The notes under the pieces: model-generated | Database searches by the model: none | What the model was told of the DNA's origin: nothing | The model's input: only the letters and a program-made list of their open reading frames with translations | Position numbers and translations under genes: made by a program | Part shown: in pieces, positions 179 through 15,688 of the stretch | Numbering within the stretch: the first letter of the stretch is position 1 | How the letters are laid out: each line of letters starts with the position of its first letter | Assembly (NCBI GenBank): GCA_048941285.1 | Contig: JBHLNS010000055.1 | Coordinates: 1 to 19,504 of the forward strand | From: Promethearchaeota archaeon | GTDB taxonomy: Archaea > Asgardarchaeota > Lokiarchaeia > Sigyniarchaeales > SOKP01 | Direction: 5' to 3' | Length of the DNA: 19,504 nucleotides

Positions 179-667
179 TTAACTCTTTTTGTCTATTAAC
201 TCTTTAAAAGAACAATTCTCTTTGATAACATTTAAAACTATATGTGTATTAGTGCGTTCAACATAAGGAGATGTATGGATTTCTTTTATCATTTTACTTA
301 AATCGCCTCTATTTTGGAATTTCGCAATTATTAGGGCATCATATTCTCCGGTTATATCGTAAACTGCAAAAATGTTTGGATTTTTTGCGATATCTTTTTC
401 AACTTCCAACATTTTTCCCTTAGATATTGTTAATTCGATTAGGGCAATAATATCGAATCCTAGTTTTTCATAATCAATCTTTACACCGTAATCTATGATA
501 ATCCCGTCATCTTCTAACGTTTCTATATGGTTTTTAACCGTTACAGGTGATTTATTTCCTAAATCTTTTGCAAGTTGTCGAAGAGAGACTCTTCCATCTG
601 TACTTAATTTTTTTAAGATCTCAATGTCAATTTGCGAAATATCTTTAAGGCTAGATCGTTCAGTCAT
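179..667 (-). CDS. Lrp/AsnC family transcriptional regulator (full length, HTH + RAM domain)
   Basis: N-terminal DIEILKKLSTDGRVSLRQLAKDLG..PVTVKNHIETLEDDGII HTH, linker IDYEKLG and C-terminal VYDITGEYDALI...VERTNTHIVL RAM domain. Divergent from glnA. Confidence 0.95.
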   Translation of the reverse strand: MTERSSLKDISQIDIEILKKLSTDGRVSLRQLAKDLGNKSPVTVKNHIETLEDDGIIIDYGVKIDYEKLGFDIIALIELTISKGKMLEVEKDIAKNPNIFAVYDITGEYDALIIAKFQNRGDLSKMIKEIHTSPYVERTNTHIVLNVIKENCSFKELIDKKS

Positions 668-964: not shown

Positions 965-2314
965 ATGATTGAAAAAAACAACCCTAAGAGAAAGGATTTA
1001 TGTAATACTGTAATTGAAAGGATAAAAGAAGAAGATATTAAATTTATTTATCTCCAATTTACTGATATTCACGGTATTATCAAATCTTTTGAAATAAATT
1101 CAAAACGCATTGAAGAAGTTTTTGAGGATGGAGAAAATTTTGATGGCAGCTCAATAACAGGTTATGGTGCGATTGAAGAGAGTGATAAAGTTGCATTACC
1201 AGATCCAAGCACATTTTATCGTTTGCCATGGAGGAAGGAAAATAAGGTAGCTCGAGTTATTTGTGACATCTATAAACCTGATGGTCAACGATATGAAGGG
1301 GATCCAAGACATATTTTGCAACGGGCCATAAAAAAAGCAGAAGAACACGGTTATACCTATTATTGTGCTCCAGAAATGGAGTTTTTTATACTTACACCTG
1401 ATACTAAACAAGAATTTAAACCATCAGATCTGAGAGGTTATTTTGATTATGACCCTTATGATATTAGCGAAATGATAAGATATCAAATTGCTGAATATTG
1501 TGATGCTATGGGAATTAACGTGGAATGTATTCATCACGAAGTTGCTTTTGGTCAGCATGAGATAGATTTTCGCTATGATCAAGCTGTAAATACAGCTGAT
1601 AATACAATTACAATAAAAACAATAGTTAAAACTGTTGCTGCGAATAAGAATCTTGTAGGAACTTTCATGGCAAAGCCATTTCATGGAATAAATGGCTCAG
1701 GGATGCATGTGCATCAATCTTTATGGAAGAACGGAAATAATTTATTTTATGATGAAAATGATAAAGATCATATTTCAATTTTAATGAAAAAATGGATTGC
1801 GGGACAATTAAAGCATGCTAGAGCTATGTGTGCGGTTCTTAGTAGTTGGCCAAATTCTTATAAAAGGCTAGTACCTGGCTACGAAGCCCCAATTTATCTA
1901 GGGTGGGGATTCAGAAACAGGTCACCCTTAATTAGAGTTCCTGATTTTCATGGTCGCCCTAATGCAGCAAGATGTGAAATTCGGTGTCCAGATCCATCTG
2001 GAAATCCATATCTTCAATTTAGTGTACTTTTAACTGCGGGTTTAAAAGGTATAATATCTGAAGATATTGAAATTTCTGAACCAACAGACAGAAATGTATA
2101 TCATCTTTCTTCTAAAGAAATGGAAAAGGAAGGAATAATTTCTTTGCCAGGGAGCTTACATGAAGCATTAATAGAATTTAAAAACTCTGAATTGATGAAA
2201 GAAGTATTTGGAGAGACTGCATTTAAAAATTATTATTATGCAAAACTCGAGGAATATGACGCCTACAGAGTAGTAGTCTCTGAATGGGAAAGAAATCGTT
2301 ACATTAGATTATAA
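965..2314 (+). CDS. glnA: Glutamine synthetase type I (GSI-alpha-like)
   Basis: Motifs FDGSSI..., IEESD, PEMEFF, HHEVAFGQHEI, KPFHGINGSGMHVHQSL, SYKRLVPGYEAP, NRSPLIRVP, RCEIRCPDPSGNPYL. 449 aa. Confidence 0.95.
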   Translation: MIEKNNPKRKDLCNTVIERIKEEDIKFIYLQFTDIHGIIKSFEINSKRIEEVFEDGENFDGSSITGYGAIEESDKVALPDPSTFYRLPWRKENKVARVICDIYKPDGQRYEGDPRHILQRAIKKAEEHGYTYYCAPEMEFFILTPDTKQEFKPSDLRGYFDYDPYDISEMIRYQIAEYCDAMGINVECIHHEVAFGQHEIDFRYDQAVNTADNTITIKTIVKTVAANKNLVGTFMAKPFHGINGSGMHVHQSLWKNGNNLFYDENDKDHISILMKKWIAGQLKHARAMCAVLSSWPNSYKRLVPGYEAPIYLGWGFRNRSPLIRVPDFHGRPNAARCEIRCPDPSGNPYLQFSVLLTAGLKGIISEDIEISEPTDRNVYHLSSKEMEKEGIISLPGSLHEALIEFKNSELMKEVFGETAFKNYYYAKLEEYDAYRVVVSEWERNRYIRL

Positions 2315-2355: not shown

Positions 2356-2607
2356 TTAAATTAATCCAGGATAATTTTTTTCAAGATTTTCTATAGCATC
2401 AAATAGCAAATTATACAATTTAATATTATCATAGACGTAAGTATTATCAAGAATATAATCTAAAATTTCATTGGCAATCTTCTTGTCTTTCTCATTATAA
2501 TTATCTATTTTAGGTTTAAACATAATGCGAAATTCTTCCGTTAGCCATATCAATTCTTCTCTTAAATTTTCTTCTAAAATTTCATAATATTTAATACTGA
2601 CTTTCAT
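2356..2607 (-). CDS. Small helical hypothetical protein (83 aa from ATG 2607)
   Basis: Amphipathic acidic helical sequence (MKVSIKYYEILEENLREELIWL...). The track's TTG at 2619 lies inside the SD-like GGTTGA, which is 8 nt upstream of ATG 2607, so ATG 2607 is preferred. Confidence 0.7.
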   Translation of the reverse strand: MKVSIKYYEILEENLREELIWLTEEFRIMFKPKIDNYNEKDKKIANEILDYILDNTYVYDNIKLYNLLFDAIENLEKNYPGLI

Positions 2608-2841
2608 TAAATATGTCAACCTTATAAATATTATATAATCTTATTTCTTCTTTAAGTTAGACAAATTTAAACCCTATTAATATTTTTTATAGACCAGTTT
2701 TTATTTTGTATTTTAATAATATAGGTTTTCCCATTTTATGATTCAGTCCATAATATTTATATAATAAATTTATTTTATAGTAATATCAATTAACTTTTTA
2801 AAAGTATAAACGCGTAATCTAAAAGAAATGAGATGATTTAA

Positions 2842-5217
2842 ATGGATAAAAATTTAAATCATATTTGGTCTTTTCCGTTAGTTGGGGGAGTATTAACACT
2901 TATTGGTCTCTTTACTCCTGCCTCAATACTTTTAAGCAACTTTTTTTGGTTCTTCGGGTTGATATACGTGGATGCAGATCCAACATTTAATTACTTCTAC
3001 TGGAATCCTGAAACATTTTTCTTCAATCTAATTCCCTTAATCCTTCTCTCAGGTCTTTCTATCGCAGTTATAGTATTAGCTATAATTTCTAGAAAAGGAG
3101 ATTTCAAAAGATTCTATAAATTCTGGTTAATACTCGGTGGTCTATTTTTCATTCCTCCATTTATACATTTATTTTGGGCTTTATTTACATTTGGCTCTTT
3201 TATTAGATATTTTATCCCTGGATTTGCTTTTATAACCCCATTCATTAGTGGAACAATTATTATATTAGGGACTCTATTTAATTCGCGGGTCTTAATGCCA
3301 CCTTCTCAAAGACGTGATTTAATCATCAAAATAAAGAAATGCTATAGGAATATACTTTGCTCGTTGAGCATTGGAGCTGTAATTTTCCTTTTTGGATCAA
3401 TAATCAGTTTTTCACTTATTTATATTTTACCCGGAGATCCTGTGCTAGCTTATTTAGCCGCTCATGGCATATTTAGTCCTAGCCCAGCTCAATATACCGC
3501 AGCACAACACTTATTGGGGTTACACTTACCACCTTTCTTACAGTTTTTTATGTTTTTATGTCAAACGTTTACAGGTAATTTAGGGGATTCTTTTACTATA
3601 GCTCCTGCGACTCCGGTCATTGATATTTTAGGAATACGAGCAACTCGAATGATTGAATTTATGCTTTTACCTCTTATAATTGTGGTGGGTTTAGGATTTT
3701 TACTAGGGAGATTTTTAGCAAAAAAAAGGGGAAAATGGTATGATAAATTCATTCAATTATTACAAATAACGGTTTTAGCATTTCCTGTTTTTATCATTGG
3801 AATGGCGTGTCAATTTTATCTTGCATATGGTGCAGGGATTATTCCTTCAGTTGGTTACAAAAGTATAGCGAATCCAGATCCCACATTGAGGACAGGTTTT
3901 CTAATATTCGATTCACTACTGGATGGAAGTTGGGCATTAGCCATAGATATCTTTTATCACCTATTAACTCCAATGATTATATTAGGAGTTAGTACTTTTG
4001 CATTAATCGCTTGGCAAACTCGTTCTTACATTGGAAATAAATCACATAAAAAATCACTCCTAAGGCATACGGTTATAACAGGGAGTATTTTCGGATTTAT
4101 TTTTATGTTTTATATATTAATTGATTTTACGTTTAATTTGAATTTTTTAGGTTCACTTCTCATAGACGCGATAAATTTAGTGGATCATTTTGTTTTAATG
4201 CGATCTCTATTTGTTATAGTAGTCATCTTCGTAATTGTTTTAACTATCTCAACTATATCTTTCTGTTTCTATAAATACATAAAAAGTGTACATGCAAAAC
4301 CTAAATCTGAACCAAGTGTGGAAGAAAAAGCTAATAGGGAAAAAGATATAAATGAGATTAGCTCTGAAGAAAATAATAAAAAGTTTTTAATACGAAAAAC
4401 GAAGGATTTATCTCTACCTTTAGGAATTGTTGGTGCAATCTTAATGATTTTCTTAATTATTATAGCAATATTTCCACAGTTAATTACAGAATATACTTTA
4501 GCAGAAGCATCGGCTGTTCAGCTAGGAGCTTGGAACCCACCTTCTCCTGACCATCCTTTAGGACAAACAGCATTAGGGGGGGATGTATTAGGTTTAGTGA
4601 TGTATGGAATACAAGATTCAATGCTTTTTGGGATTATGGCAGTTCTTATTAGCTTAGTTGGAGGAATTCCATTAGGATATTTAGCCGGAAGATTTCGTAA
4701 ATGGGGATATAAATTAGTAATGGCAGCAATGGTTTTTTTCTATACATTTCCCATGTTTATAATAGTACTTCTATTCCTTGGTATATTAGGAACGTATTAT
4801 GGAATCACTCTATTAATTGTGGGAGTACTAATGGTACCTAATTTCACACGGGTTATTGCAAATATAATATCTGGTAATATTAGAGTTGATCTTTATCGAA
4901 CTGGAAAAAAATTACTAGCTCATATTCCATTAAATTTCTCAATCGCAGTTTTAATCTATGCAACATTAGGATTTTTAAGGTTTACACCTTCATTAATCCC
5001 CCAACAATTAGGAAATCTTATGAATATTGGACGTTCCAATTTGTATTCCGCTCCTTGGGCATCATTATGGGCAGGTTTTGCAATTTTTGGGATAACATTC
5101 ACATTTCTTCTTTTGTATTTAGCATTCCAACATCATAATTTAAGTTCTAGAAAATTTAAATTAAAATTTGGGACAGCTAAGAATCGTTCTAAATCTTTAG
5201 AAAATATGGCAAAATAA
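2842..5217 (+). CDS. Fused membrane protein: N-terminal multi-TM domain + DppB/OppB-like + DppC/OppC-like ABC permease
   Basis: DppB hallmarks LPGDPV, LGLHLP...QF, GNLGDS, TGFLIFDSLL, HLLTP. Charged linker about aa 480-520. DppC hallmarks PPSPDHPLGQTALGGDVL...YG, G..LGYLAG, LG.LM..GR..LYSAPW. SD-like GAGATGA upstream. Confidence 0.85.
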   Translation: MDKNLNHIWSFPLVGGVLTLIGLFTPASILLSNFFWFFGLIYVDADPTFNYFYWNPETFFFNLIPLILLSGLSIAVIVLAIISRKGDFKRFYKFWLILGGLFFIPPFIHLFWALFTFGSFIRYFIPGFAFITPFISGTIIILGTLFNSRVLMPPSQRRDLIIKIKKCYRNILCSLSIGAVIFLFGSIISFSLIYILPGDPVLAYLAAHGIFSPSPAQYTAAQHLLGLHLPPFLQFFMFLCQTFTGNLGDSFTIAPATPVIDILGIRATRMIEFMLLPLIIVVGLGFLLGRFLAKKRGKWYDKFIQLLQITVLAFPVFIIGMACQFYLAYGAGIIPSVGYKSIANPDPTLRTGFLIFDSLLDGSWALAIDIFYHLLTPMIILGVSTFALIAWQTRSYIGNKSHKKSLLRHTVITGSIFGFIFMFYILIDFTFNLNFLGSLLIDAINLVDHFVLMRSLFVIVVIFVIVLTISTISFCFYKYIKSVHAKPKSEPSVEEKANREKDINEISSEENNKKFLIRKTKDLSLPLGIVGAILMIFLIIIAIFPQLITEYTLAEASAVQLGAWNPPSPDHPLGQTALGGDVLGLVMYGIQDSMLFGIMAVLISLVGGIPLGYLAGRFRKWGYKLVMAAMVFFYTFPMFIIVLLFLGILGTYYGITLLIVGVLMVPNFTRVIANIISGNIRVDLYRTGKKLLAHIPLNFSIAVLIYATLGFLRFTPSLIPQQLGNLMNIGRSNLYSAPWASLWAGFAIFGITFTFLLLYLAFQHHNLSSRKFKLKFGTAKNRSKSLENMAK

Positions 5218-5227
5218 TATTTCTAAC

Positions 5228-5237
5228 TTTTTTTTTT
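5228..5237 (+). terminator. Oligo-T (T10) putative archaeal terminator
   Basis: Ten consecutive T 10 nt after the permease stop codon, between convergent genes. Confidence 0.55.
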
Positions 5238-5256
5238 ATTTTAAAGAATAGATAAA

Positions 5257-7065
5257 TTAGACTTGTTCTTTCATTTTTTCTATATATTCAAGACTTTGAT
5301 GCCTGAAATATGTGTTATAAAGTTCGGCATACATACCTCCTTTAACCATTAACTCATCATGATTTCCTTCTTCGACGATTTTCCCGTGATCAAGTACAAT
5401 AATTCTATCTACATGTCGCACAGTCCAGAGTCGATGAGCAATGATTATTGATGTCCGGCCTTCGATAGTTTTTTGTAAAGCATCTTGAATTCGTGTTTCT
5501 GTAAAAGGATCAACTGAAGCTGTGGCTTCATCTAAAATAAGGATAGCAGGGTTTTCTAATAAGACCCGAGCAAAAACTACTAGTTGTCGCTGACCCATAG
5601 AAAGACGACTACCTCTTTCTCCAGTATCGGTGTTTAATCCGTTTGGTAAATCCTCGATCCACTCGGAACCACTCGTAACGTTTAAAGAATTATAAACATC
5701 TTCTGTATTTGCGTCTATACAGCAATATTTTATGTTATTTTCAATAGAATCTGCGAAAAGAAATGGAGATTGAGGAATAATTCCTATTTGCTTTCGATAT
5801 TCTTTAAGGTTATAATTTCTAATACTAACTCCATCAACCAATATATCACCGGCTTGAAATTCATAAAACCTTCCTAAGAGTTTTGCTAAACTTGATTTTC
5901 CTGCCCCAGTATGTCCAACAATTGCTAAAGATTCTCCTGCTTTAATTGAAAGATTAAAATTATTAAAAATTATTTTTTCTTTTTCATAATAGAAAACTAG
6001 GTTTTTGAGCTCTATGCTGCCTTTTAATCTTGAAGGATTAATGTTATCATTTTGAATTACTTGAGGTAAAGTATCTATTAATGCAAAGATTCGTTCAGAG
6101 GCAGCCATTCCAGCTTGGAATGTGGGCCAAAACGATGCTATAGATAACAACGGAAAAAATAAATAATTTAAACCCTGTAAAAAAAGATTTAGATCGCCAG
6201 CGCTCATCCCTCCTCCCAAAACATTACTGCCTCCAAATAGTACTAATAATGTTATTACAATTCCTTGTATGAGTCCTAGGGAAGGAAAAATAGCATTTAA
6301 CACAAATGCTCTTCTTAAATTAACTTTGTATGAAGTTGTATTTATCTTATCGAATTTTCCATACAATTTATCTTCTTGACGAAAAGTTTTCGCTATTTGA
6401 ATACCTGAAAAACTTTCTTTAACAAAATCATTAACTGATGCTAAAGCTCTTTGTCCTAACAATGTTCTTTTCCGTGCAATTTTACGAAATGCTAATGCTA
6501 GGATAAAAAAGAAGGGAATTGAGCTAATAGTTGCCAAAGAAAGTGTAAGATTTATGACAAGCATTATAATGATTAAAATTAGTAAAATTAAGATGGATGA
6601 GACTAACTGGATTGATAAATCTACAGTTGTTCCGAAAGTGTCACTATCTGAATTTACCCTACTAACTATCTTACCTGTTGGATTTCTATCAAAAAACGAA
6701 AGATCATGATTTAATACTGAGTTTGTAGCATCTTTTCTAAGATCCAGCATCACCCCTCCTATTACTCGAAATGCATAACGTTGCTGAAAGTAATTGAATA
6801 CCCAACTTAAGAGATTTAAGATGAGAATAATAGATACGATAAAGACAATATAAAAGGCATTTCTATTCGTCTCTAAATTGTTGATGATGATACTAATTAA
6901 AACTGGTACAAAAGCAGATGTAAGAGATGAGATTGTAATAAATAGAATAACTATTGCCATAGAGCGCTTATATGAGCTGAAATATCCTAAAATACGCTTT
7001 AATAAAGTTCGATCTTTATATTTTCTATCGTATTCCTCTGCTTCTAAGTCCCATCCATAAGCCAT
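5257..7065 (-). CDS. ABC exporter half-transporter (TMD+NBD), TM288/TmrA-like subunit
   Basis: Multi-TM N-terminal half, Walker A GHTGAGKS, signature LSMGQ, Walker B ILILDEAT, H-loop IAHRL. Confidence 0.95.
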   Translation of the reverse strand: MAYGWDLEAEEYDRKYKDRTLLKRILGYFSSYKRSMAIVILFITISSLTSAFVPVLISIIINNLETNRNAFYIVFIVSIILILNLLSWVFNYFQQRYAFRVIGGVMLDLRKDATNSVLNHDLSFFDRNPTGKIVSRVNSDSDTFGTTVDLSIQLVSSILILLILIIIMLVINLTLSLATISSIPFFFILALAFRKIARKRTLLGQRALASVNDFVKESFSGIQIAKTFRQEDKLYGKFDKINTTSYKVNLRRAFVLNAIFPSLGLIQGIVITLLVLFGGSNVLGGGMSAGDLNLFLQGLNYLFFPLLSIASFWPTFQAGMAASERIFALIDTLPQVIQNDNINPSRLKGSIELKNLVFYYEKEKIIFNNFNLSIKAGESLAIVGHTGAGKSSLAKLLGRFYEFQAGDILVDGVSIRNYNLKEYRKQIGIIPQSPFLFADSIENNIKYCCIDANTEDVYNSLNVTSGSEWIEDLPNGLNTDTGERGSRLSMGQRQLVVFARVLLENPAILILDEATASVDPFTETRIQDALQKTIEGRTSIIIAHRLWTVRHVDRIIVLDHGKIVEEGNHDELMVKGGMYAELYNTYFRHQSLEYIEKMKEQV

Positions 7066-7067
7066 TT

Positions 7068-8906
7068 TTAAATTTCCTCATATTGTTTAATTAAGGTATC
7101 GATTTCAACATCAAATTTTTTGATAAAAATACGTTGGTATTCTTCTGAAGTCTTTAAAAGTTCCTCATGAGTACCTTTAGCAACAATTTCTCCTTTTTTA
7201 AGAACAATTATTAAGTCTGCCCATCTAATTTGTGAAAGTCTATGAGTTATAAGAATGGTTGTTCTGTTTTTTAGAATATTTCGGATTGCTATTTGTATTT
7301 TATCTTCTGTATTAGAATCTATAGCAGAAGTTGAATCATCTAATATTAAGATTTTAGGGTTGACAAGAAAAGCGCGAGCAATAGCAATCCTTTGCCTTTC
7401 ACCACCACTTAATTGGACGCCTCGTTCTCCTACCTCAGAATTATATTGTTTGGGTAATTTAGATATAAATTCATGAGCTTGTGCTTGTCTAGCTACCTGA
7501 ATAACCTCTTCAAGAGAACCAGTTTTTCCAAAGGAAATATTTTCGAAAATACTTGTAGAAAATAAAAATACATCTTGATCTACATGAGATATCTGATTTC
7601 TTAACGATTTTAATGCATAATCTCGTATTTCAATATTATCAATGTAAATTTTTCCTTTATTAACGTCATACAATCGTGAGATTAATTTAGCTAATGTTGT
7701 TTTACCCGAACCTGTCGTTCCAACTATAGCTAATGTTTTTCCAGGTTGAATTTCAAAAGAAATATTCTTTAAAACCGGTTTTTCACTCCCTGGATAAGCA
7801 AATGTAACATTTTGGAATTTAATGCTTCCGTCTATAGATTTCTGATATCCTTCAAGATTTTCATCTATTTCTGTCTTTTTATTCATTAGCTCGAGTAATC
7901 TCTGAGCACTTGAAACCGCAAGACGTATTATAGCAAATACAAAAATAGAAATAAATGTAGGGAAGCGCAATAACGATAATAATCCTACATAAGCAATGAT
8001 TTGCCCAATATTCATTAGACCATAAAAATTAAGTATTATAGCATGGATTAACCCACCTGTAATAGCGAAGGCTAAAAGTAGTATTGGAAGATATTTCGCT
8101 TCGATATCGCCTTGTTCAACATATGCATCCTTATAATTATTAGCATGTATTACATACTTTTGGATTTCTTTAGCTTCTTGTGCTGTAGCTTTAACTACTT
8201 CAATTCCTGTGAGTGCTTCGTTTAAAGTAGAGTTCATAATCCCATAAAATGCACGAAGTTTCCCGGTTACAGGCCCAATTTTTTTAATGTATGATTTTAG
8301 GGAGAAGAAAAATGATACTGAAAAAATTATAGGCGCTAATATTAATTGAGTTGGATAAAAAATAACAATATAGAAAAGTGGTATTATAAGTGCAGTGAAT
8401 GATTCAAATATTAAAGAAATTGCTGGACTAATCAAATAGTTCATAGTCCTTACGTCATCAGTAGCACGAGCCATAATTTCACCAATCTTTTGTTGATCGT
8501 GAAAAGATTGACTTTTCCCAAGCAAATTTGCATAAAATTCTTTTCGACAATCTCTTTCTAATCTTTGAGCAATAACTTCACGTAGCATATAATTAGTTAG
8601 GCGTAAAATAGGCGTTCCTGTGCTTAATAATAATATAAAAAGAGTATAAAATATCAATGAAGATTGGTTTCCATTTAAAAAATCGGTGATTGCATTTCCT
8701 ATTACAACAAGAATCGCTGAGGATAAATTAGCTGCTAAAATGGTTGTAAAAAATACAATAGTAATAAATAGTTTATTTGAACCATGAAAAATATGTGCTA
8801 ATATCCACTTTCTAGATCCTTTTCTTCGAGCGTTCTCATAAGGATCTTTCCCTGGTGAAAATTCTACAATTTCTATATTATTCCTATAATCTGTATTCTT
8901 CTGCAT
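7068..8906 (-). CDS. ABC exporter half-transporter (TMD+NBD), TM287/TmrB-like subunit
   Basis: Walker A GTTGSGKT, signature LSGGE, Walker B ILILDDST, H-loop ITHRL. Stop codon 2 nt before partner's ATG. Confidence 0.95.
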   Translation of the reverse strand: MQKNTDYRNNIEIVEFSPGKDPYENARRKGSRKWILAHIFHGSNKLFITIVFFTTILAANLSSAILVVIGNAITDFLNGNQSSLIFYTLFILLLSTGTPILRLTNYMLREVIAQRLERDCRKEFYANLLGKSQSFHDQQKIGEIMARATDDVRTMNYLISPAISLIFESFTALIIPLFYIVIFYPTQLILAPIIFSVSFFFSLKSYIKKIGPVTGKLRAFYGIMNSTLNEALTGIEVVKATAQEAKEIQKYVIHANNYKDAYVEQGDIEAKYLPILLLAFAITGGLIHAIILNFYGLMNIGQIIAYVGLLSLLRFPTFISIFVFAIIRLAVSSAQRLLELMNKKTEIDENLEGYQKSIDGSIKFQNVTFAYPGSEKPVLKNISFEIQPGKTLAIVGTTGSGKTTLAKLISRLYDVNKGKIYIDNIEIRDYALKSLRNQISHVDQDVFLFSTSIFENISFGKTGSLEEVIQVARQAQAHEFISKLPKQYNSEVGERGVQLSGGERQRIAIARAFLVNPKILILDDSTSAIDSNTEDKIQIAIRNILKNRTTILITHRLSQIRWADLIIVLKKGEIVAKGTHEELLKTSEEYQRIFIKKFDVEIDTLIKQYEEI

Positions 8907-9057
8907 TTATGAATTCAAGTTATATTAGAGAATATTAAATTATTAGTTTTGAAATGGTAGATTATTAATAGGTTTTTTATATTTAAAATATAAATTTCAT
9001 TGGAGATTTTAATTTTAAAAGGGAAATTCGATATTTTTTCCGTATCTTGCTATGAAA

Positions 9058-9076
9058 CAATCGTTGAAAACGATTG
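9058..9076. repeat. Perfect inverted repeat CAATCGTT-GAA-AACGATTG (operator or hairpin candidate)
   Basis: 8-bp arms with 3-nt spacer, extendable with TGAAA/TTTCA to 9053-9083. About 150 nt upstream of the exporter operon start. Confidence 0.4.
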
Positions 9077-9299
9077 CTTTTCAGAGAAATTAGAGATTTT
9101 TGCTAAAAGACATATTATCTAGTTGTCTTAATGTTGAAAAACAGTAAAAAGTTGAATTTTTCATGGAATTATCCCTATAGTTTTAATAACAAATTTTGTA
9201 CACAAATATTAGGAGTTATATTAACGGATTAATAGGTCCGACAAATTTCTATGAAATATTAAAGATTAATTTAAATATTAGAAGTTTTATAAAATAATT

Positions 9300-9443
9300 G
9301 TGTCTGATAAAGAAATTCGGTATGATGTTAGATTGGAAGAAGAATTAGAGAAAGTAAAGCTTAAAATCTGGTTGCAGGAAGAACTTCAACTAATTCCTCG
9401 GAAATATCACTCATTAATTATAAAGAATATAACAATTCGATAG
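9300..9443 (+). CDS. Small hypothetical protein, 47 aa (not in ORF track)
   Basis: GTG start; MSDKEIRYDVRLEEELEKVKLKIWLQEELQLIPRKYHSLIIKNITIR-TAG. Protein-like, purine-rich coding pattern in an AT-rich gap; converges on the 9478-9762 gene with a 34-nt gap. Confidence 0.55.
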   Translation: MSDKEIRYDVRLEEELEKVKLKIWLQEELQLIPRKYHSLIIKNITIR

Positions 9444-9477
9444 TAATATAATTTCTCCTTACCCTTTCTCTATACAC

Positions 9478-9762
9478 CTAATCCTCATAATCATTTTTTG
9501 TGCTAATTAAGGTTGTTGTTGCTTCTATCCACTGTGACAATTCTGGATCATTTCTGCAGAACGACACAATTTTTTCTAAGTCCCCGAGATTAATAAATTT
9601 ACATTCAATTAGTAAATCCCAACCGCCATATATAGGTGTAACATAAGTGATCTGCCACTTTTGATTTTTATCGCTAGATTTAAAACTTTTTATTTTTTCT
9701 GTGACTTTCCATTGCGTACCAATAATCTTTAAACGAACTAAAATATATCCGCGATAATAAAT
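9478..9762 (-). CDS. Stand-alone Lrp/AsnC ligand-binding (RAM)-like domain protein, 94 aa, apparent ATT start (not in ORF track)
   Basis: Manual translation: (I/M)YYRGYILVRLKIIGTQWKVTEKIKSFKSSDKNQKWQITYVTPIYGGWDLLIECKFINLGDLEKIVSFCRNDPELSQWIEATTTLISTKNDYED-TAG. YILV, YGGWDLLIE and IEATTTLI fit the RAM pattern (G.YD.I ... I..T.T.I). An in-frame TAG directly precedes ATT; AGGTG lies 8 nt upstream. Confidence 0.8.
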   Translation of the reverse strand: MYYRGYILVRLKIIGTQWKVTEKIKSFKSSDKNQKWQITYVTPIYGGWDLLIECKFINLGDLEKIVSFCRNDPELSQWIEATTTLISTKNDYED

Positions 9763-9859
9763 CTATTTGACACCTAAATTGTATCTTTATATATAATGCA
9801 AATGATAGATTGTGATATATTTACAATATTTTTCAAGATTTCTATTAATGAGAGAGTAA

Positions 9860-10000
9860 ATAGTAGCAGTAATTTCATTTAAATATTATAAAATTATTTC
9901 AATTACCATTAGCTTTATAGGCACATTAATAGAGGGGATTTTTATCGTTCTTATCGCATGTGTTTTTAATGCTGTGATCTTTGGAGTAATGGAATTTTAA
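9860..10000 (+). CDS. Possible small membrane peptide (46 codons) or pseudogene remnant
   Basis: Open frame IVAVISFKYYKIISITISFIGTLIEGIFIVLIACVFNAVIFGVMEF-TAA, strongly hydrophobic. Preceded in frame by ATG AGA GAG TAA (9848-9859). Confidence 0.25.
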   Translation: MVAVISFKYYKIISITISFIGTLIEGIFIVLIACVFNAVIFGVMEF

Positions 10001-10048
10001 TCGCATTAAAAAAAGGTAGATCATAAAAAACCTGAATAGTAAGTTCAT

Positions 10049-13000
10049 CTACCAATATATTTCTTTTAATGTTTTATGATAATCATTAAGTGATTTAATC
10101 GTAATTTTTTTCTTCCTAACGTTTTCTATAGCATTTACCACAGCTTTAGCAAGTTGCAAATTAACAATAACAGGGATATTATAGTCAACTGCCATTCTTC
10201 GAATTTTATATTCATCTTCAATTATAATATTGAATTCATCTTCTGCTGTTGTTGGCATTGGAATATTAATCACCATATCAATATGGCCATCTTGCAGACA
10301 TGCCATTATATTTGGTTCTTTTCCGTATTCATGGACTTTATAGAGTTTAACTGCTTCAATTTCGTTATATTTTAATGCTAGTGCTGTATCTTCCGTTGCG
10401 AAGATTTTAAAGTTTAAGTTTTTTAATTTTTTGGCAATTGGTATTACTTCCTTCTTCAAATCTTCTCCACCTACAGATATTAATACATTACCGCCATTAA
10501 TGGGGATATCCATTTCTGTTGCTTCTAAAGCTTTTATTAGGGCATCTTGAAAGTCTTCGCCTATTATTCCGATTTCACCTGTTGAAGCCATTTCAACTCC
10601 AAGTCTAAAATCAGCTTTATCTAATCTCATGAAAGAAAAAATCGGAGCTTTGATTCCAACATAGTTTCCATAAGGAAGTTTAAGAAGTCTTTCAGGGATT
10701 TTTTTACCCATAATTACTTCTGCTGCTAATCTCATTAGATTAATACCTCTTATTTTTGAAACATAAGGCATACTACGACTTGAACGTAAATTGCATTCAA
10801 TTACATATACCTCTCCATTTTTAACTAAATATTGGACATTAAACGGTCCATTTATTTTGAGAGCTATAGCAATTTGTTTTGTATATTTTTCTATTATCTC
10901 GATAATAGACTGATCCACTGTTTGAGGAGGGATAGCCATGGTAGCATCTCCACTATGAATACCAGCATTTTCGATATGCTCGACAATAGCTCCTATCAAT
11001 ACATTTTCTCCATCACAAATACCATCACATTCAATTTCTCTAGCATTAGTAAAAAACTTAGTTATTACAACAGGATATTCACTGGAAACTGAAGCAGCAA
11101 GATCAAGAGTATCCTTTAGCGTCTTTTCTTCATAAGAAACTCTCATAGCAGCTCCACTTAACACATAAGAGGGTCTAACTAATACAGGGTAACCTACTTC
11201 CTTTGCAAATTGTAACGCTTCATTTTTATTAGTTAAGGTCTTCCATTCTGGCTGCATTATATTTAATTGATCTAATAATGCACTAAATTTACTCCTATCT
11301 TCTGCCATATCTATTCTAGAGCCATGAGTTCCTAGAATTTTTAAATTGGTTTTTCTAAAAAATTCTGAGTATTTAGAAATTTTAGCAGCTAAATTATTTG
11401 CTATTTGCCCCCCCGCAGAAACAACAATACCAGTTGCTTTTTCAAGCTCACAAATGTCAAGAACTCTTTCACCAGAAATTTCTTCAAAATATAATTTATC
11501 AGATATATCATAGTCAGTTGATACAGTTTCAGGATTATAATTTATTATAATTGCTTGATCTATGCCAAGTTTTTTTAAACCCCATAAACAATTGACAGAT
11601 CCCCAATCGAATTCAACTGAAGCGCCAATACGATATGTTCCAGAACCTAATACTATTATTTTTTTTAGATCTAATTTATTTTCTTTTTCAAAATCAATAT
11701 CGTGCTCAGATGCACAATATGTGAGATACAAGTAATTAGTTGCTGCTGGCCATTCAGCTGCTAATGTATCAATTCTTTTAACATAAGGTTGAACAGATAA
11801 TCTTCTTCTCATCTGTCTTATGAAAATAGTATCAACTTTCATAATTTTCGCTATTTGGCCATCAGAAAATCCATATCTTTTCGCTCTTTCTAGCCAATAT
11901 CTTTTCTCACTATCCTCAGTCTCAAGTAGATCAAGATCTTGCAGTTGACGTTCAAGATCAATAATATTTTTCAATTTATATAAAAACCACTTATCAATGC
12001 GGGATAATCGATATATTTCATCAAGGGAGATCCCTTTTTTTATTGCTTCAGCAATTCTAAATATCCTTAAATCTGTTGGATTTCTTAATACGTATTTTAA
12101 TTCATTAATATCTTCAATAAGTTCTAAATTATTTGCTACAAAACCTTTCATGCCAATATCAAGCATTCTAATGGCTTTTTGTAAAACTTCTTCAAAAGTT
12201 CTACCAATTGCCATTACTTCGCCCACACTTTTCATTTGAGAGCCTATTCTTCGATCAACCTTTTGAAATTTGGTCAAGTCCCATCTTGGAATCTTAAGTA
12301 CTAAATAATCCAATGCTGGTTCGAAACAAGCTGTTGTAACTCCAGTAATTTGGTTTTTTAATTCAGGTAATGTATATCCAATTGCTAATTTAGCAGCTAT
12401 ATACGCTAATGGATATCCTGTTGCTTTAGATGCAAGTGCAGAAGATCTTGAAAGACGTGCATTTACTTCTATTGCTCGGAACTCTTTTGAAAAGGGGTCA
12501 AGCCCATATTGAATATTACACTCTCCGATTATACCTAGGTTACGAATTACCCTTATAGATGCTGAACGAAGCATATGATATTCATCATTTGTAAGCGTTT
12601 GGCTAGGGCTAACTACGATTGACTCTCCTGTGTGAAGTCCAACAGGATCAAAATTTTCCATATTGCAATTAATAAAACAATTATCCTTAGAATCTCTTAC
12701 AACTTCATATTCTATCTCCTTCCAACCCCAAATACTTTCTTCAATTAAAATTTGATTTATTCTTGACTGAGCTAATCCCTTTTTCGCCATTCTTTCAAAT
12801 TCTTTTATATTATCAACAATACCAGATCCTCTTCCACCTAATGTATACGCTACTCGTATCATACACGGAAATCCAATTTCTTTTACAGCTTTTAATGCTT
12901 CACTATAAGAATTTACCGCCTGGCTTTTACACACTTTAACATTTGATTTTTCCATCGCTTTCACAAAAAGATCTCTATCTTCGGTAGCTTCAATTGCTTC

Positions 13001-13360
13001 AATAGGAGTCCCAAGCACTCTTACATTATATTTTTCTAAAATTCCCGCTTCTTTTAACTCAACACCTACATTTAAAGCTGTTTGTCCACCAAATGCTAAT
13101 AATATCCCATCTGGTTTTTCTTTTTTTATTATTTCCTCTACATATTTAATATTTATAGGTAATAAATAGACTTTATCTGACAATTCTGGGTCAGTTTGAA
13201 TCGTAGCAATATTGGGGTTGATCAATATTGTCTCAATTCCCTCTTCTTTTAGGGCTTTTAATACTTGACTTCCAGAATAATCGAATTCGCCCGCTTGACC
13301 AATCCTGATACCTCCACTTCCAAGAACTAATGCTTTCTTAATAGTTTTATCTAATGGCAT
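10049..13360 (-). CDS. carB: Carbamoyl-phosphate synthetase large subunit
   Basis: LGSGGIRIGQAGEFDYSG, two ATP-grasp halves (IEVNARLSRSSALASKATGYPLA; IECNLRSSRS), C-terminal MGS-like domain (FATEDTA...IRRMAVDYNIP). 1103 aa. Confidence 0.98.
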   Translation of the reverse strand: MPLDKTIKKALVLGSGGIRIGQAGEFDYSGSQVLKALKEEGIETILINPNIATIQTDPELSDKVYLLPINIKYVEEIIKKEKPDGILLAFGGQTALNVGVELKEAGILEKYNVRVLGTPIEAIEATEDRDLFVKAMEKSNVKVCKSQAVNSYSEALKAVKEIGFPCMIRVAYTLGGRGSGIVDNIKEFERMAKKGLAQSRINQILIEESIWGWKEIEYEVVRDSKDNCFINCNMENFDPVGLHTGESIVVSPSQTLTNDEYHMLRSASIRVIRNLGIIGECNIQYGLDPFSKEFRAIEVNARLSRSSALASKATGYPLAYIAAKLAIGYTLPELKNQITGVTTACFEPALDYLVLKIPRWDLTKFQKVDRRIGSQMKSVGEVMAIGRTFEEVLQKAIRMLDIGMKGFVANNLELIEDINELKYVLRNPTDLRIFRIAEAIKKGISLDEIYRLSRIDKWFLYKLKNIIDLERQLQDLDLLETEDSEKRYWLERAKRYGFSDGQIAKIMKVDTIFIRQMRRRLSVQPYVKRIDTLAAEWPAATNYLYLTYCASEHDIDFEKENKLDLKKIIVLGSGTYRIGASVEFDWGSVNCLWGLKKLGIDQAIIINYNPETVSTDYDISDKLYFEEISGERVLDICELEKATGIVVSAGGQIANNLAAKISKYSEFFRKTNLKILGTHGSRIDMAEDRSKFSALLDQLNIMQPEWKTLTNKNEALQFAKEVGYPVLVRPSYVLSGAAMRVSYEEKTLKDTLDLAASVSSEYPVVITKFFTNAREIECDGICDGENVLIGAIVEHIENAGIHSGDATMAIPPQTVDQSIIEIIEKYTKQIAIALKINGPFNVQYLVKNGEVYVIECNLRSSRSMPYVSKIRGINLMRLAAEVIMGKKIPERLLKLPYGNYVGIKAPIFSFMRLDKADFRLGVEMASTGEIGIIGEDFQDALIKALEATEMDIPINGGNVLISVGGEDLKKEVIPIAKKLKNLNFKIFATEDTALALKYNEIEAVKLYKVHEYGKEPNIMACLQDGHIDMVINIPMPTTAEDEFNIIIEDEYKIRRMAVDYNIPVIVNLQLAKAVVNAIENVRKKKITIKSLNDYHKTLKEIYW

Positions 13361-14499
13361 TAGTTTTTAACCCCCATTAATTCAATAAATTTATCAAATA
13401 GATATAAAGAATCTAAAGGTCCAGGTGATGCCTCTGGATGAAACTGAACAGCGAACAACGGCTTATTTGCATGTATTATTCCTTCATTAGAATTATCATC
13501 TATATTTTTAAGAAATTCCTTAAAACCTCCCGTTTCAAAATCTTTAACACAGAATCCATGATTCTGAGATGTTATATAACACTGATGAGTTTCTGGGTTT
13601 ATAATTGTTTTATTGCCTCCTCTATGACCATATTTTAATTTATAAGAAGAACCACCTGCTCCTAAACCTAAAATTTGATTCCCCAGACAAATACCCATTG
13701 TTGGTATATTATTTTCTATTAAGCTTCTGGCAACGTCTATTGCACTCTTATATATCGCAGGATCTCCTGGTCCATTAGAAATAAATACACCGTCTGGATT
13801 AAGTTTCATAATTTGATTGTAGTTGAAGTCAAAAGGTACAAGAATAACTTCAATCTCTCTCTGCACAAAATTCCTAAGAATATTATTTTTAACTCCCAAA
13901 TCTAACACTACTACTTTCCCTTTTGAATGTAGTGGTATAAATCTCTTAATTTCCTTAGTTGAAACTTCGCTCGCTAAATGTTTAAGGTTTGGATCTTCAA
14001 TTTTTTTGACTTCTTCTCTCAATTCATTTATTTTAGGTTTTTCTCCAGGATTATAAACAGCTAGTAATCCAACTTGAACGCCTTCTTCCCTCAAAATTCT
14101 TGTTAATGCCCTAGTATCGATCCACTCAATTCCAGGAACATCTTCTTCAAGAAGAAACTCATTGAGAGTTTTTGCACTCTCAAAATGGCTTGGATTTTTA
14201 CAACATTCATTAACTACAAATCCTCTTACTTTTATTGAATCTGATTCGAAATATCTTTGAATTCCATATTTATCTTTCTCCCAAGCTGGAACTCCATAAT
14301 TTCCAATAAGAGGGTGAGTCATAACTACAATTTGACCATGATATGAGGGATCTGTTAAAGTTTCATTATAACCAGCACCAGTAATTGTGGTAAAAACAAT
14401 TTCTCCTCCTACTTTCTTGGTAGAACCAAAACCGACTCCTTCAAAATAACGTCCATCTTGAAGCATCAGTATAGCTGGTCTTTCTTTCTTATAAAGCAT
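13360..14499 (-). CDS. carA: Carbamoyl-phosphate synthetase small (glutaminase) subunit
   Basis: LTDPSY.GQ, IDTRALTR..R..G, SNGPGDP, GICLG (catalytic Cys), SQNHGF, QFHPEASPGP. TAATG overlap with carB. Confidence 0.98.
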   Translation of the reverse strand: MLYKKERPAILMLQDGRYFEGVGFGSTKKVGGEIVFTTITGAGYNETLTDPSYHGQIVVMTHPLIGNYGVPAWEKDKYGIQRYFESDSIKVRGFVVNECCKNPSHFESAKTLNEFLLEEDVPGIEWIDTRALTRILREEGVQVGLLAVYNPGEKPKINELREEVKKIEDPNLKHLASEVSTKEIKRFIPLHSKGKVVVLDLGVKNNILRNFVQREIEVILVPFDFNYNQIMKLNPDGVFISNGPGDPAIYKSAIDVARSLIENNIPTMGICLGNQILGLGAGGSSYKLKYGHRGGNKTIINPETHQCYITSQNHGFCVKDFETGGFKEFLKNIDDNSNEGIIHANKPLFAVQFHPEASPGPLDSLYLFDKFIELMGVKN

Positions 14500-14596: not shown

Positions 14597-15688
14597 TTAA
14601 ATAGAGCTACCCGGTGGTGGTGAGTATGATGAATATAATTCTTTTTTAATGCTTTCTCCCTTTTCTTTTAGAAATTCTTGTACTGTTTTCTTAATTGACT
14701 TAATTATTGATTCAAAATCAATTTCATGAAAAGAATTATACCACGAATAATCCTTAGTTTTTAACTTTTCTAATTCATCTGATTTCTGTAGAATTATTAT
14801 ATTGTGATCAATTAAAAATGATGGATCTAATATATTCTCCTCTCCATCATTTAATTTTTTTATATTTATAAGCATACACTCAAGTAAATCATCATAAAAA
14901 AGAAGTGGAATATATTTTAATAATTTAGGTTTTACGGTATCTAAAGAAGAATCTAACGTTTCTATGTTGTTTGTAAAACCTATTTCAGAGAGGTCAAAAA
15001 CATCTAGGTTTATCAGTTCTGGATGAAATTGTATTTGCTCTTTTTTTTTCATTTTTTCGCGATATTTTGCTATCTTTTTGATGTACATTTTAACTTTGGT
15101 TTGTAAATGCGTGGTTTCGACTAATATTGAATTTTCTTCTATTCTTTTTTCACATATATGTTGAACATTTTCGCAATAGAGAGTTGCTGCAGTTATTAGG
15201 TCTTCATTATTAAGTTTTGCTCTCAAAAGATTATCAACATATGATTTTAAAAATGCCAAGAAATCATTCTCAAGATCTAATAACTTAGCATACAAAAATT
15301 TTGTAGAATTCCACCATTTTTGTGCTTTTTGAGTTGTAAGAGAAAGAGCAAATTGACCGAAAGCACGAATTTCTGTGAAATTGATCAATTGCTCAATTCC
15401 ATATTGAATAAACATATTGGGATTGATTACGGCATTTAGGTCATCTATTAGTGGAAAAGAAATTGGCTCCCTAGGACGAATTAAAAGAGATTGTTCGCCA
15501 TTAAATACACGATCTACTCTCATGGGAATAGGCATAATTGGATTATTAATGATTCTTTTTAGTATTGCTACATCGCGTTCTGATTCAAAACCAGTTAGAT
15601 CAGGAGGAAACACTTCAAGATAAAAGAAAAAAGGTGCTGCATCATATTTAAAGGTTTTAAATTTATTAATTGGTTTTACAGAGATCAC
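14597..15688 (-). CDS. Hypothetical protein, about 360 aa, start uncertain (GTG 15688 or GTA 15679)
   Basis: Long clean ORF co-oriented between tetR and carA; no family recognised. The annotated GTG lies within the SD-like AGGTGATC. Confidence 0.8.
   Translation of the reverse strand: MISVKPINKFKTFKYDAAPFFFYLEVFPPDLTGFESERDVAILKRIINNPIMPIPMRVDRVFNGEQSLLIRPREPISFPLIDDLNAVINPNMFIQYGIEQLINFTEIRAFGQFALSLTTQKAQKWWNSTKFLYAKLLDLENDFLAFLKSYVDNLLRAKLNNEDLITAATLYCENVQHICEKRIEENSILVETTHLQTKVKMYIKKIAKYREKMKKKEQIQFHPELINLDVFDLSEIGFTNNIETLDSSLDTVKPKLLKYIPLLFYDDLLECMLINIKKLNDGEENILDPSFLIDHNIIILQKSDELEKLKTKDYSWYNSFHEIDFESIIKSIKKTVQEFLKEKGESIKKELYSSYSPPPGSSI

Follow-up and report, generated by a model that had tools for sequence, protein, structure and literature searches.

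The window analyzed here is the complete 19.5-kb contig JBHLNS010000055.1 (19,504 nucleotides, ~31% G+C) of a Promethearchaeota archaeon. It carries a gene whose product unites the peptide importer permeases DppB and DppC in a single chain from which both EAA coupling helices, the elements by which ATPases grip and drive the membrane domains of type I importers, have been lost. The open reading frame (ORF) spans 2842-5217 on the forward strand and encodes 791 amino acids (aa) with no internal stops. Both permease folds are retained, the gene is under purifying selection and orphan in its context, and the outward face of the protein is conserved. We propose, with a probability of about one-half, that the protein is a functional, selectively maintained member of an Asgard family of single-chain (sometimes split) DppB-DppC pseudo-heterodimers without coupling helices that acts as a dock or conduit at the outer face. 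The parts of this proposal differ in strength. The protein is probably uncoupled from ATP-binding cassette (ABC) ATPases and has most likely ceased to serve as the membrane component of an importer driven by ATP; a continuing role with binding proteins or peptides is a more tentative suggestion. Selection preserves the transmembrane (TM) core together with the outward elements that in Dpp/Opp systems meet the substrate-binding protein, namely the scoop in the B half and the HPLG..G.D loop in the C half. At the outer face, the protein would serve as a dock or receptor for abundant, unlinked family-5 binding proteins, and alternatively or additionally as a passive, ATP-independent conduit for the peptides those proteins deliver. 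An earlier suggestion from the first-pass annotation of this DNA, an ATP-independent channel, facilitator or receptor, fits these results.

The gene and its parts are located in the window as follows.

2842..5217 (+), whole gene: single-chain DppB-DppC-like membrane protein with an N-terminal four-TM domain (ORF translation, homologues and AlphaFold2 [AF2] model)
2842..3336 (+), N-terminal accessory domain, residues 1-165: four TM helices by DSSP of the model
3355..4293 (+), DppB-like half, residues 172-484: six TM helices (profile match to 8z1v_A; Foldseek)
3427..3519 (+), scoop motif, residues 196-226: outward helix-loop-helix that aligns to Escherichia coli DppB residues 32-62
4012..4074 (+), site of the lost B-half EAA coupling helix: end of TM4, a 7-residue loop and start of TM5; 23 residues shorter than canonical
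4036-4056 (+), short loop of the B half, residues 399-405 (AF2 model)
4294..4413 (+), charged cytoplasmic linker between the halves, residues 485-524: poorly conserved, low model confidence
4414..5130 (+), DppC-like half, residues 525-763: six TM helices (profile match to 8z1v_B; Foldseek)
4471..4584 (+), outward loop of the C half, residues 544-581, PPSPxHPLGQTxLGxDV: best conserved segment of the protein
4843..4929 (+), site of the lost C-half EAA coupling helix: 4-residue loop 676-679, with 20 fewer residues than the canonical form
5131..5217 (+), cytoplasmic C-terminal tail, residues 764-791: poorly conserved, predicted local distance difference test score (pLDDT) <50

The loss of the coupling helices is apparent from profile alignment, residue counts and structure prediction. 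A profile built from 11 family members was run against the Protein Data Bank and matched E. coli DppB over the first half (8z1v_A, E = 5.9e-33) and E. coli DppC over the second (8z1v_B, E = 6.6e-22), with gaps over the EAA region of 7+15 in the B half (22 columns) and 16+4 in the C half (20 columns). Loop lengths were taken as the residues between conserved anchors in a MAFFT alignment. By this count, the B half has 42 residues from R394 to G437, versus 65 in five canonical DppB proteins (two from the same genome), and the C half has 46 residues from P666 to residue 713, versus 66 in two canonical DppC proteins (one from the same genome). The deletions in the TM4-TM5 loops thus amount to 23 and 20 residues in the B and C halves, respectively. 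The affected segments read WQTRSYIGNKSHKKSLLRHTV in the B half (residues 391-411, nucleotides 4012-4074) and FTRVIANIISGNIRVDLYRTGKKLLAHIP in the C half (residues 668-696, nucleotides 4843-4929), where the trailing I-P-L of the former EAA motif is still present. An AF2 model calculated from a 62-sequence family alignment (pLDDT 85.5; predicted template modeling score, pTM, 0.83) has plain hairpins at both sites, composed of helix 364-398, loop 399-405 and helix 406-430 in the B half and helix 665-675, loop 676-679 and helix 680-711 in the C half. When the model was compared with known structures using Foldseek, the template modeling score (TM-score) normalized by target was 0.79-0.80 for DppC (8z1v_B and 8z1x_B) and 0.73 for DppB (8z1v_A). 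Within the linker, pLDDT falls below 50 over residues 488-509.

Family assignment points the same way. Pfam BPD_transp_1 is matched at 34.3 bits, above its 26.4 cutoff, through partial matches that cover only positions 1-86 of the 184-position profile in the C half and 1-73 in the B half; BPD_transp_1_N scores 18.1 bits, under its cutoff of 23.8. None of the NCBIfam equivalogs for DppB, DppC, Opp, Nik and Gsi permeases reaches its cutoff, the best being Opp2B at 90.2 versus 350 bits (DppB, 60.6 versus 590; DppC, 42.1 versus 483). Among the features of a type I ABC importer membrane domain, the family profile match, the DppB/DppC folds and the scoop motif are present; an EAA loop in either half and an ATPase/binding-protein neighborhood are absent. 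Since the coupling-helix feature and the equivalog cutoffs fail, the protein is filed as a variant derived from the DppB/DppC family and not as a working DppBC. According to excerpts of the account of E. coli DppBCDF, every contact between membrane domain and ATPase goes through the TM4-TM5 coupling helix (PMC12136057). With both of these helices deleted, canonical ATPase coupling is unlikely.

These results largely bear out what the first-pass annotation had drawn from the letters of this DNA. It had described both EAA loops as missing, in agreement with the profile gaps, anchor counts and model hairpins, and the two peptides it quoted do lie at 4012-4074 and 4843-4929. Its estimate that the B half is some 20 residues short is right as to the deletion, with a measured length of 23 (20 in the C half). 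The 791-aa frame was correctly called intact. Its placement of a fused DppB-DppC gene at 3340..5217 captures both halves and leaves the additional four-TM residues 1-165 undescribed.

Both deletions are shared across a family of Asgard proteins. A word-indexed search returned eight full-length homologues (783-799 aa, 54-64% identity), all from metagenome-assembled Asgard archaea whose phylum labels vary by source, and an exhaustive search of cluster representatives returned 75 proteins at E 1e-30 or better, many of which are 560-660-aa fusions that lack the first 165 residues. Nine orthologues at 54-64% identity, as well as dozens of paralogues, have uninterrupted frames. Both loops are short in 69 of the 86 fused relatives examined, which divide by source as listed here.

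59 database relatives of at least 540 aa: both loops short, 45; B short with a C loop of 50-59 residues, 7; B short with a full C loop, 4; canonical, 3
27 ORFs from fetched loci: both loops short, 24; B short with a C loop of 50-59 residues, 1; B short with a full C loop, 2; canonical, 0

Where the C loop retains its length, the EAA consensus has already been lost. In a FastTree tree rooted on the canonical-length fusions, a root that we assumed, the shorter forms nest within the longer ones. These sequence comparisons suggest a stepwise loss, in which the B loop would have been deleted first and the C loop would then have decayed and shrunk.

When 400 genomes of the phylum were searched with a profile, the best 40 rows (582 bits or more, the only rows used) fell in 32 genomes of one family, which is a lower bound and not a census. 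Sixteen belong to the genus of the window (its own genome included), 15 to a second genus and 1 to a third. Lower rows mix true partial matches with read-through of neighboring canonical dppB and dppC genes, and at E 1e-60 the same search is unusable as a family count. Members further removed, whose loops measure 44/55 or 42/64 residues, come from another family within the order (L048, L052, L064), and one is encoded by the cultured Candidatus Lokiarchaeum ossiferum (cluster P0071/P0162); we found no paper naming the locus tag of that member. A search for longer proteins with extra fused domains returned none, which is weak evidence.

Conservation within the protein is concentrated on its outward side, with inside and outside assigned from the model topology. 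Conservation peaks in the outward C-half loop (residues 544-581), at 0.82 among orthologues and 0.62 across the family; the scoop segment scores 0.75 and 0.48. The cytoplasmic linker reaches 0.56 and 0.30, and the C-terminal tail is lowest at 0.53 and 0.13. Within the loop, P567, S568, H571, G574, G579 and D581 are fully or almost invariant across 62 sequences, and scoop residues P197, G198, L205, P213, L225 and G226 are invariant in 11 sequences. The model forms the scoop from helices 200-207 and 215-225. This asymmetry between the well-kept outward elements and the poorly kept cytoplasmic linker and tail is the main ground for regarding the protein as likely still active at the outer face. 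Excerpts of the E. coli work describe the DppB scoop motif as inserting into the binding protein DppA (PMC12136057). Weak supporting context for a dock or conduit comes from a study of a cultured Asgard archaeon, which reports a family-5 binding protein as the most abundant protein detected and no S-layer protein as detected (PMC11284389).

The ratio of nonsynonymous to synonymous substitution rates (dN/dS) was estimated by the Nei-Gojobori method as a whole-gene average. For the fused gene of the window, it is 0.23 against locus L056, 0.24 against L032 and 0.30-0.31 against L031 and L058; the unsaturated pair L056 and L032 (dS 0.116) gives 0.27. Flanking genes range from 0.04 to 0.13, with dS of 0.67-0.94 for the enzymes and the Lrp gene and 1.24 for an 87-aa ORF. 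Many columns of alignment A2 are invariant, and mean column identity is 71%. The protein is constrained yet fast-changing, given a dN/dS of 0.23-0.31 but an amino-acid rate three to five times that of its neighbors. We also observed that the fused-gene dS between L056 and L032 lies below that of the adjacent glnA (0.36), a hint that the fused gene may have recombined or been transferred between lineages.

The gene is variable in architecture as well. In genomes of the same genus, it fills one slot between glnA and a pair of exporter genes (window 2620-5256). Slot occupants are 36-63% identical, flanking proteins 70-94% and the exporters 70-92%. The forms found in the slot are the following.

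about 790 aa, 55-63% identity: L031/L057, L032, L056, L058
single protein of 759 aa: L060
759 aa plus 574 aa: L059
two copies, 572 plus 579 aa: L039
truncated copy of 466 aa: L044
two split copies: L063 (genome G355)

Together with L061, these variable loci hold one or two copies, with or without the N-terminal domain, fused or split; the domain is present in the form of about 790 aa and absent from the forms of about 575 aa, which occur singly or in pairs. Both tandem copies in G355 (L063:7956-9842 and L063:10053-11909) have an in-frame stop in the linker followed at once by an ATG, yielding B products of 341 and 333 aa and C products of 286 and 284 aa. To judge from the sequence, the copies were divided into separate B and C genes in an ordered manner and not by damage. 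Because both G355 copies are split, fusion is not obligatory in the family without coupling helices.

Rate and variability together form the case for an alternative in which transport has been abandoned and the importer fold is merely a stable frame for a fast-evolving surface scaffold or receptor, such as a cell-surface organizer or a virus-host target or decoy, with no binding protein engaged. Amino-acid divergence exceeds that of the flanks three- to fivefold at a similar or somewhat higher dS (1.10 versus 0.67-0.94 for the flanking enzymes and Lrp). A single slot in one genus varies in copy number and architecture beside exporters that stay 70-92% identical, tandem paralogues are present in several genomes, and one clade has gained the extra four-TM domain with its outward sheet. 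We nevertheless consider this explanation doubtful: PADLOC finds no defense family, a whole-gene dN/dS of 0.23-0.31 reveals no net positive selection, and the best conserved segments are those in common with working DppB/DppC at the binding-protein face, which a scaffold would not obviously need.

A second alternative keeps the protein in an ATP-driven importer whose ATPases, the DppD/DppF pair or others of the ABC type, are borrowed in trans and coupled noncanonically, for example by way of the short K/S-rich loops, the linker or the tail. Its appeal lies in how the Dpp parts are distributed in the genome. A single dpp operon with two oligo_HPY ATPases, the only DppD/F pair, lies on another contig and is cut by the contig end. 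Eight unlinked SBP_bac_5 genes, the family-5 binding proteins, with frames of 568-1324 aa are spread over contigs C28, C32, C33, C40 (two), C65, C69 and C91, none of which carries a Dpp-type permease or ATPase. Two tandem orphan canonical DppB genes (C70:9853-12014, equivalent to L055:5854-8015; 341 aa each, 70% identical) sit between radA and a phosphoglucomutase gene with no DppC, ATPase or binding-protein gene nearby. An unlinked permease is thus ordinary in this organism. The window, which is the whole contig, has no SBP_bac_5 gene and no oligo_HPY ATPase gene; because Dpp parts are scattered in this genome anyway, that absence is weak evidence by itself. The short B loop also keeps the pattern R-S-x3-N-K-x4-S-x2-S/N-T throughout the family. 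Other observations make borrowed ATPases unlikely. Both coupling helices are deleted and the model leaves bare hairpins in their place, conservation is lowest in the cytoplasmic linker and tail, and full EAA loops are present in the genome's orphan canonical DppB genes, as they would be in a permease docking ATPases in trans. Moreover, no stand-alone ATPase adjoins the gene in the loci of 18 relatives: neither a stand-alone ABC ATPase nor an SBP_bac_5 protein was found with Pfam among 104 neighbors (three genes on each side in 17 relatives' loci) or among the 11 ORFs at the closed-genome locus L064. A lone canonical DppB lies near the fused gene in two loci (L038 and L043).

That the gene is a decaying relic, a former importer gene without partners drifting toward a pseudogene, is very improbable, since its standing as the fastest-evolving gene of its block, the truncation of the L044 copy to 466 aa and a weak Pfam score of 34 bits are set against a dN/dS of 0.23-0.31 (0.27 in the unsaturated pair), intact frames in nine orthologues and dozens of paralogues with 71% mean column identity in alignment A2, and deletions that are precise and shared within a fold otherwise modeled at high confidence. 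The first-pass annotation had likewise argued for selective loss over decay and had named homologues sharing both deletions, homologues remaining orphan and a dN/dS below 1 as ways of checking it, along with a structural model inspected for coupling helices. Its argument stands on each: the deletions are family-wide (69 of 86 fused relatives), the genes are orphan in 18 relatives' loci, nine frames are intact, dN/dS is 0.23-0.31, and the confident DppB/DppC fold has plain hairpins at both sites.

Several points weigh against our proposal of a maintained, ATPase-uncoupled dock or conduit. Type I importers also have secondary contacts between membrane domain and ATPase, shared ATPases occur in other systems, and the one DppD/F pair of this genome could in principle be shared. 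The relatives' loci come from related genomes and are not independent. With a dN of 0.26 versus 0.035-0.09, the fused gene evolves at three to five times the amino-acid rate of its flanks, and this fast rate together with the variable architecture would suit relaxed constraint or a nontransport role equally well. None of the family members examined has a linked binding-protein gene, and the partner is hypothetical. Finally, E41 and R42, the charged residues of the E. coli scoop loop that pair with DppA, are not conserved in this protein; in the E. coli work, mutation of E41/R42 is reported not to abolish function (PMC12136057).

A bolder version of the dock-or-conduit proposal, which we consider unlikely, is that in this family the membrane core of an ABC importer has become the basis of a new class of uptake system, dependent on binding proteins but not on ATP, or of surface receptor. 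The family-5 proteins that dominate the Asgard surface would dock on the scoop and HPLG loops and hand over peptides, and the pseudo-heterodimer would open without ATPases, by facilitated diffusion or by an ion coupling not yet seen. If true, this would be the first case in nature in which the core of a type I ABC importer works without a motor. The coupling helix is treated as a universal transmission element of ABC importers, and a conserved and widespread family that lacks it in both halves, if core and outward face are kept, would be a natural experiment on the membrane domains alone. In the literature searched for importer permeases without EAA loops or coupling helices and for Asgard peptide transporters, no such proteins were found described. 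Asgard archaea depend on peptides and amino acids, and the family would bear on how these are taken up or sensed. The question is testable given that a distant member is present in the cultured Ca. L. ossiferum.

The N-terminal accessory domain (residues 1-165) matches no Pfam family. In the model, DSSP assigns a small four-stranded sheet (residues 26-54) that faces outward between TM1 and TM2. The domain also occurs in P0014, P0018, P0024 and P0051 and is missing from most of the ~600-aa relatives. Its top structural match in the ESM Atlas is TMEM37, a claudin-like protein (TM-score 0.73 by query, below the reporting bar of the search), and we treat the predicted claudin/TMEM37 likeness as a lead only.

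The surroundings of the fused gene in the window comprise the following genes.

179-667 (-), Lrp/AsnC regulator (Pfam)
965-2314 (+), glutamine synthetase, glnA (Pfam)
2356-2619 (-), small acidic 87-aa ORF, divergently transcribed (same-genus synteny)
5257-8906 (-), two ABC exporter half-transporters with their own ATPase domains, convergent and downstream; the gene next to the fused ORF is 5257-7065
10049-14499 (-), carbamoyl-phosphate synthase, carB and carA (Pfam)

The fused gene is thus flanked on both sides by opposite-strand genes (2356-2619 and 5257-7065), with no cognate ATPase or binding-protein gene in the window, both as described in the first-pass annotation. In same-genus loci, the gene lies among glnA, Lrp/AsnC and carAB, with the oligopeptidase gene pepF ~6 kb away; this nitrogen and peptide neighborhood is a weak hint at function from one lineage. 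In other genera, the neighbors are unrelated housekeeping genes. Functional coupling to the adjacent exporter pair was considered and rejected. The pair follows the gene in L031, L032, L033, L039, L044, L056, L057, L060, L061 and L063, where the flanks are 70-94% identical, and is lacking in other genera, so the adjacency reflects shared synteny of close kin.

Copies of the 87-aa ORF, 54-74% identical, lie beside the fused gene in L032, L039 (two), L044, L056, L058, L059 and L063. The ORF is under purifying selection (dN/dS 0.12-0.13) and is duplicated along with the fused gene in L039; it has no match in Pfam, NCBIfam or PADLOC, and a functional link to the fused gene is unproven. Regarding expression, a 268-nucleotide contig from a metatranscriptome library lies on 2885-3152 with 8 differences; as such libraries can hold DNA, this match is no proof of transcription. 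Other RNA contigs cover only 37 and 51 bases elsewhere in the window.

A recurring large surface protein upstream of the fused gene was also rejected, as the proteins in L034 (981 aa) and L064 (1011 aa) are not homologous. The ~980-aa protein of L034 (L034:5466-8411) has a counterpart in L040 (L040:10974-13916, 980 aa), with a signal-like N-terminal segment, a C-terminal TM anchor and weak matches to prenyltransferase alpha-alpha-toroid families. Its gene overlaps the start of the fused gene by 4 nucleotides in L034 and lies ~210 nucleotides upstream in L040; the protein may be an operon partner in that genus. Elsewhere in the window, the 1.1 kb between the exporter pair and carB (8907-10048) holds no ORF of at least 50 aa, and scans of the window for tRNA genes and Rfam families returned no match there or anywhere else. 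A 363-aa ORF between carA and a TetR-family gene (14597-15688, reverse strand) matches no Pfam or PADLOC family, and its L059 copy is 48% identical. Outside the window, at the syntenic same-genus locus L056, a 152-aa protein encoded next to the Lrp gene (L056:8938-9396, reverse strand) scores 27.3 bits against a B-box zinc finger (cutoff, 24.1).

Among known systems, the tripartite ATP-independent periplasmic (TRAP) and tripartite tricarboxylate transporter (TTT) systems would be alike only in the proposed principle that a binding protein feeds an ATP-free membrane part. The window protein is unrelated to these systems in sequence and fold, we identified no feature of ion coupling in it, and Pfam matches it to no DctQ/DctM or TctA/TctB family; membership is not claimed. 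The closest structural counterparts are E. coli DppB/DppC (8z1v-8z1z) and Mycobacterium tuberculosis DppBC/OppBC (8wd9, 8j5q), which share both folds with the window protein, and also their order, B before C (Foldseek TM-score 0.65-0.80 normalized by target). Like E. coli DppB/DppC, the window protein keeps the scoop of the B half and an HPLG..GRD-type outward loop in the C half. It differs in having no TM4-TM5 coupling helices (23 and 20 residues), in the fusion of its halves by a charged linker, in the added N-terminal four-TM domain and in lacking a dppA/dppD/dppF operon. The orphan DppB genes of C70, from the same organism, are likewise unlinked to ATPase or binding-protein genes. Unlike the window protein, their products match BPD_transp_1 in full (136-142 bits, positions 2-183) and have a 65-residue EAA-type loop, and they could dock ATPases supplied in trans. 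The same single-chain B-C arrangement is found in canonical fused DppB-DppC proteins such as P0111 (708 aa, named peptide/nickel transport system permease protein at its source). These are the nearest relatives to keep full loops (65 and 66 residues) with EAA-type sequence, whereas in the window protein and 68 relatives both loops are short.

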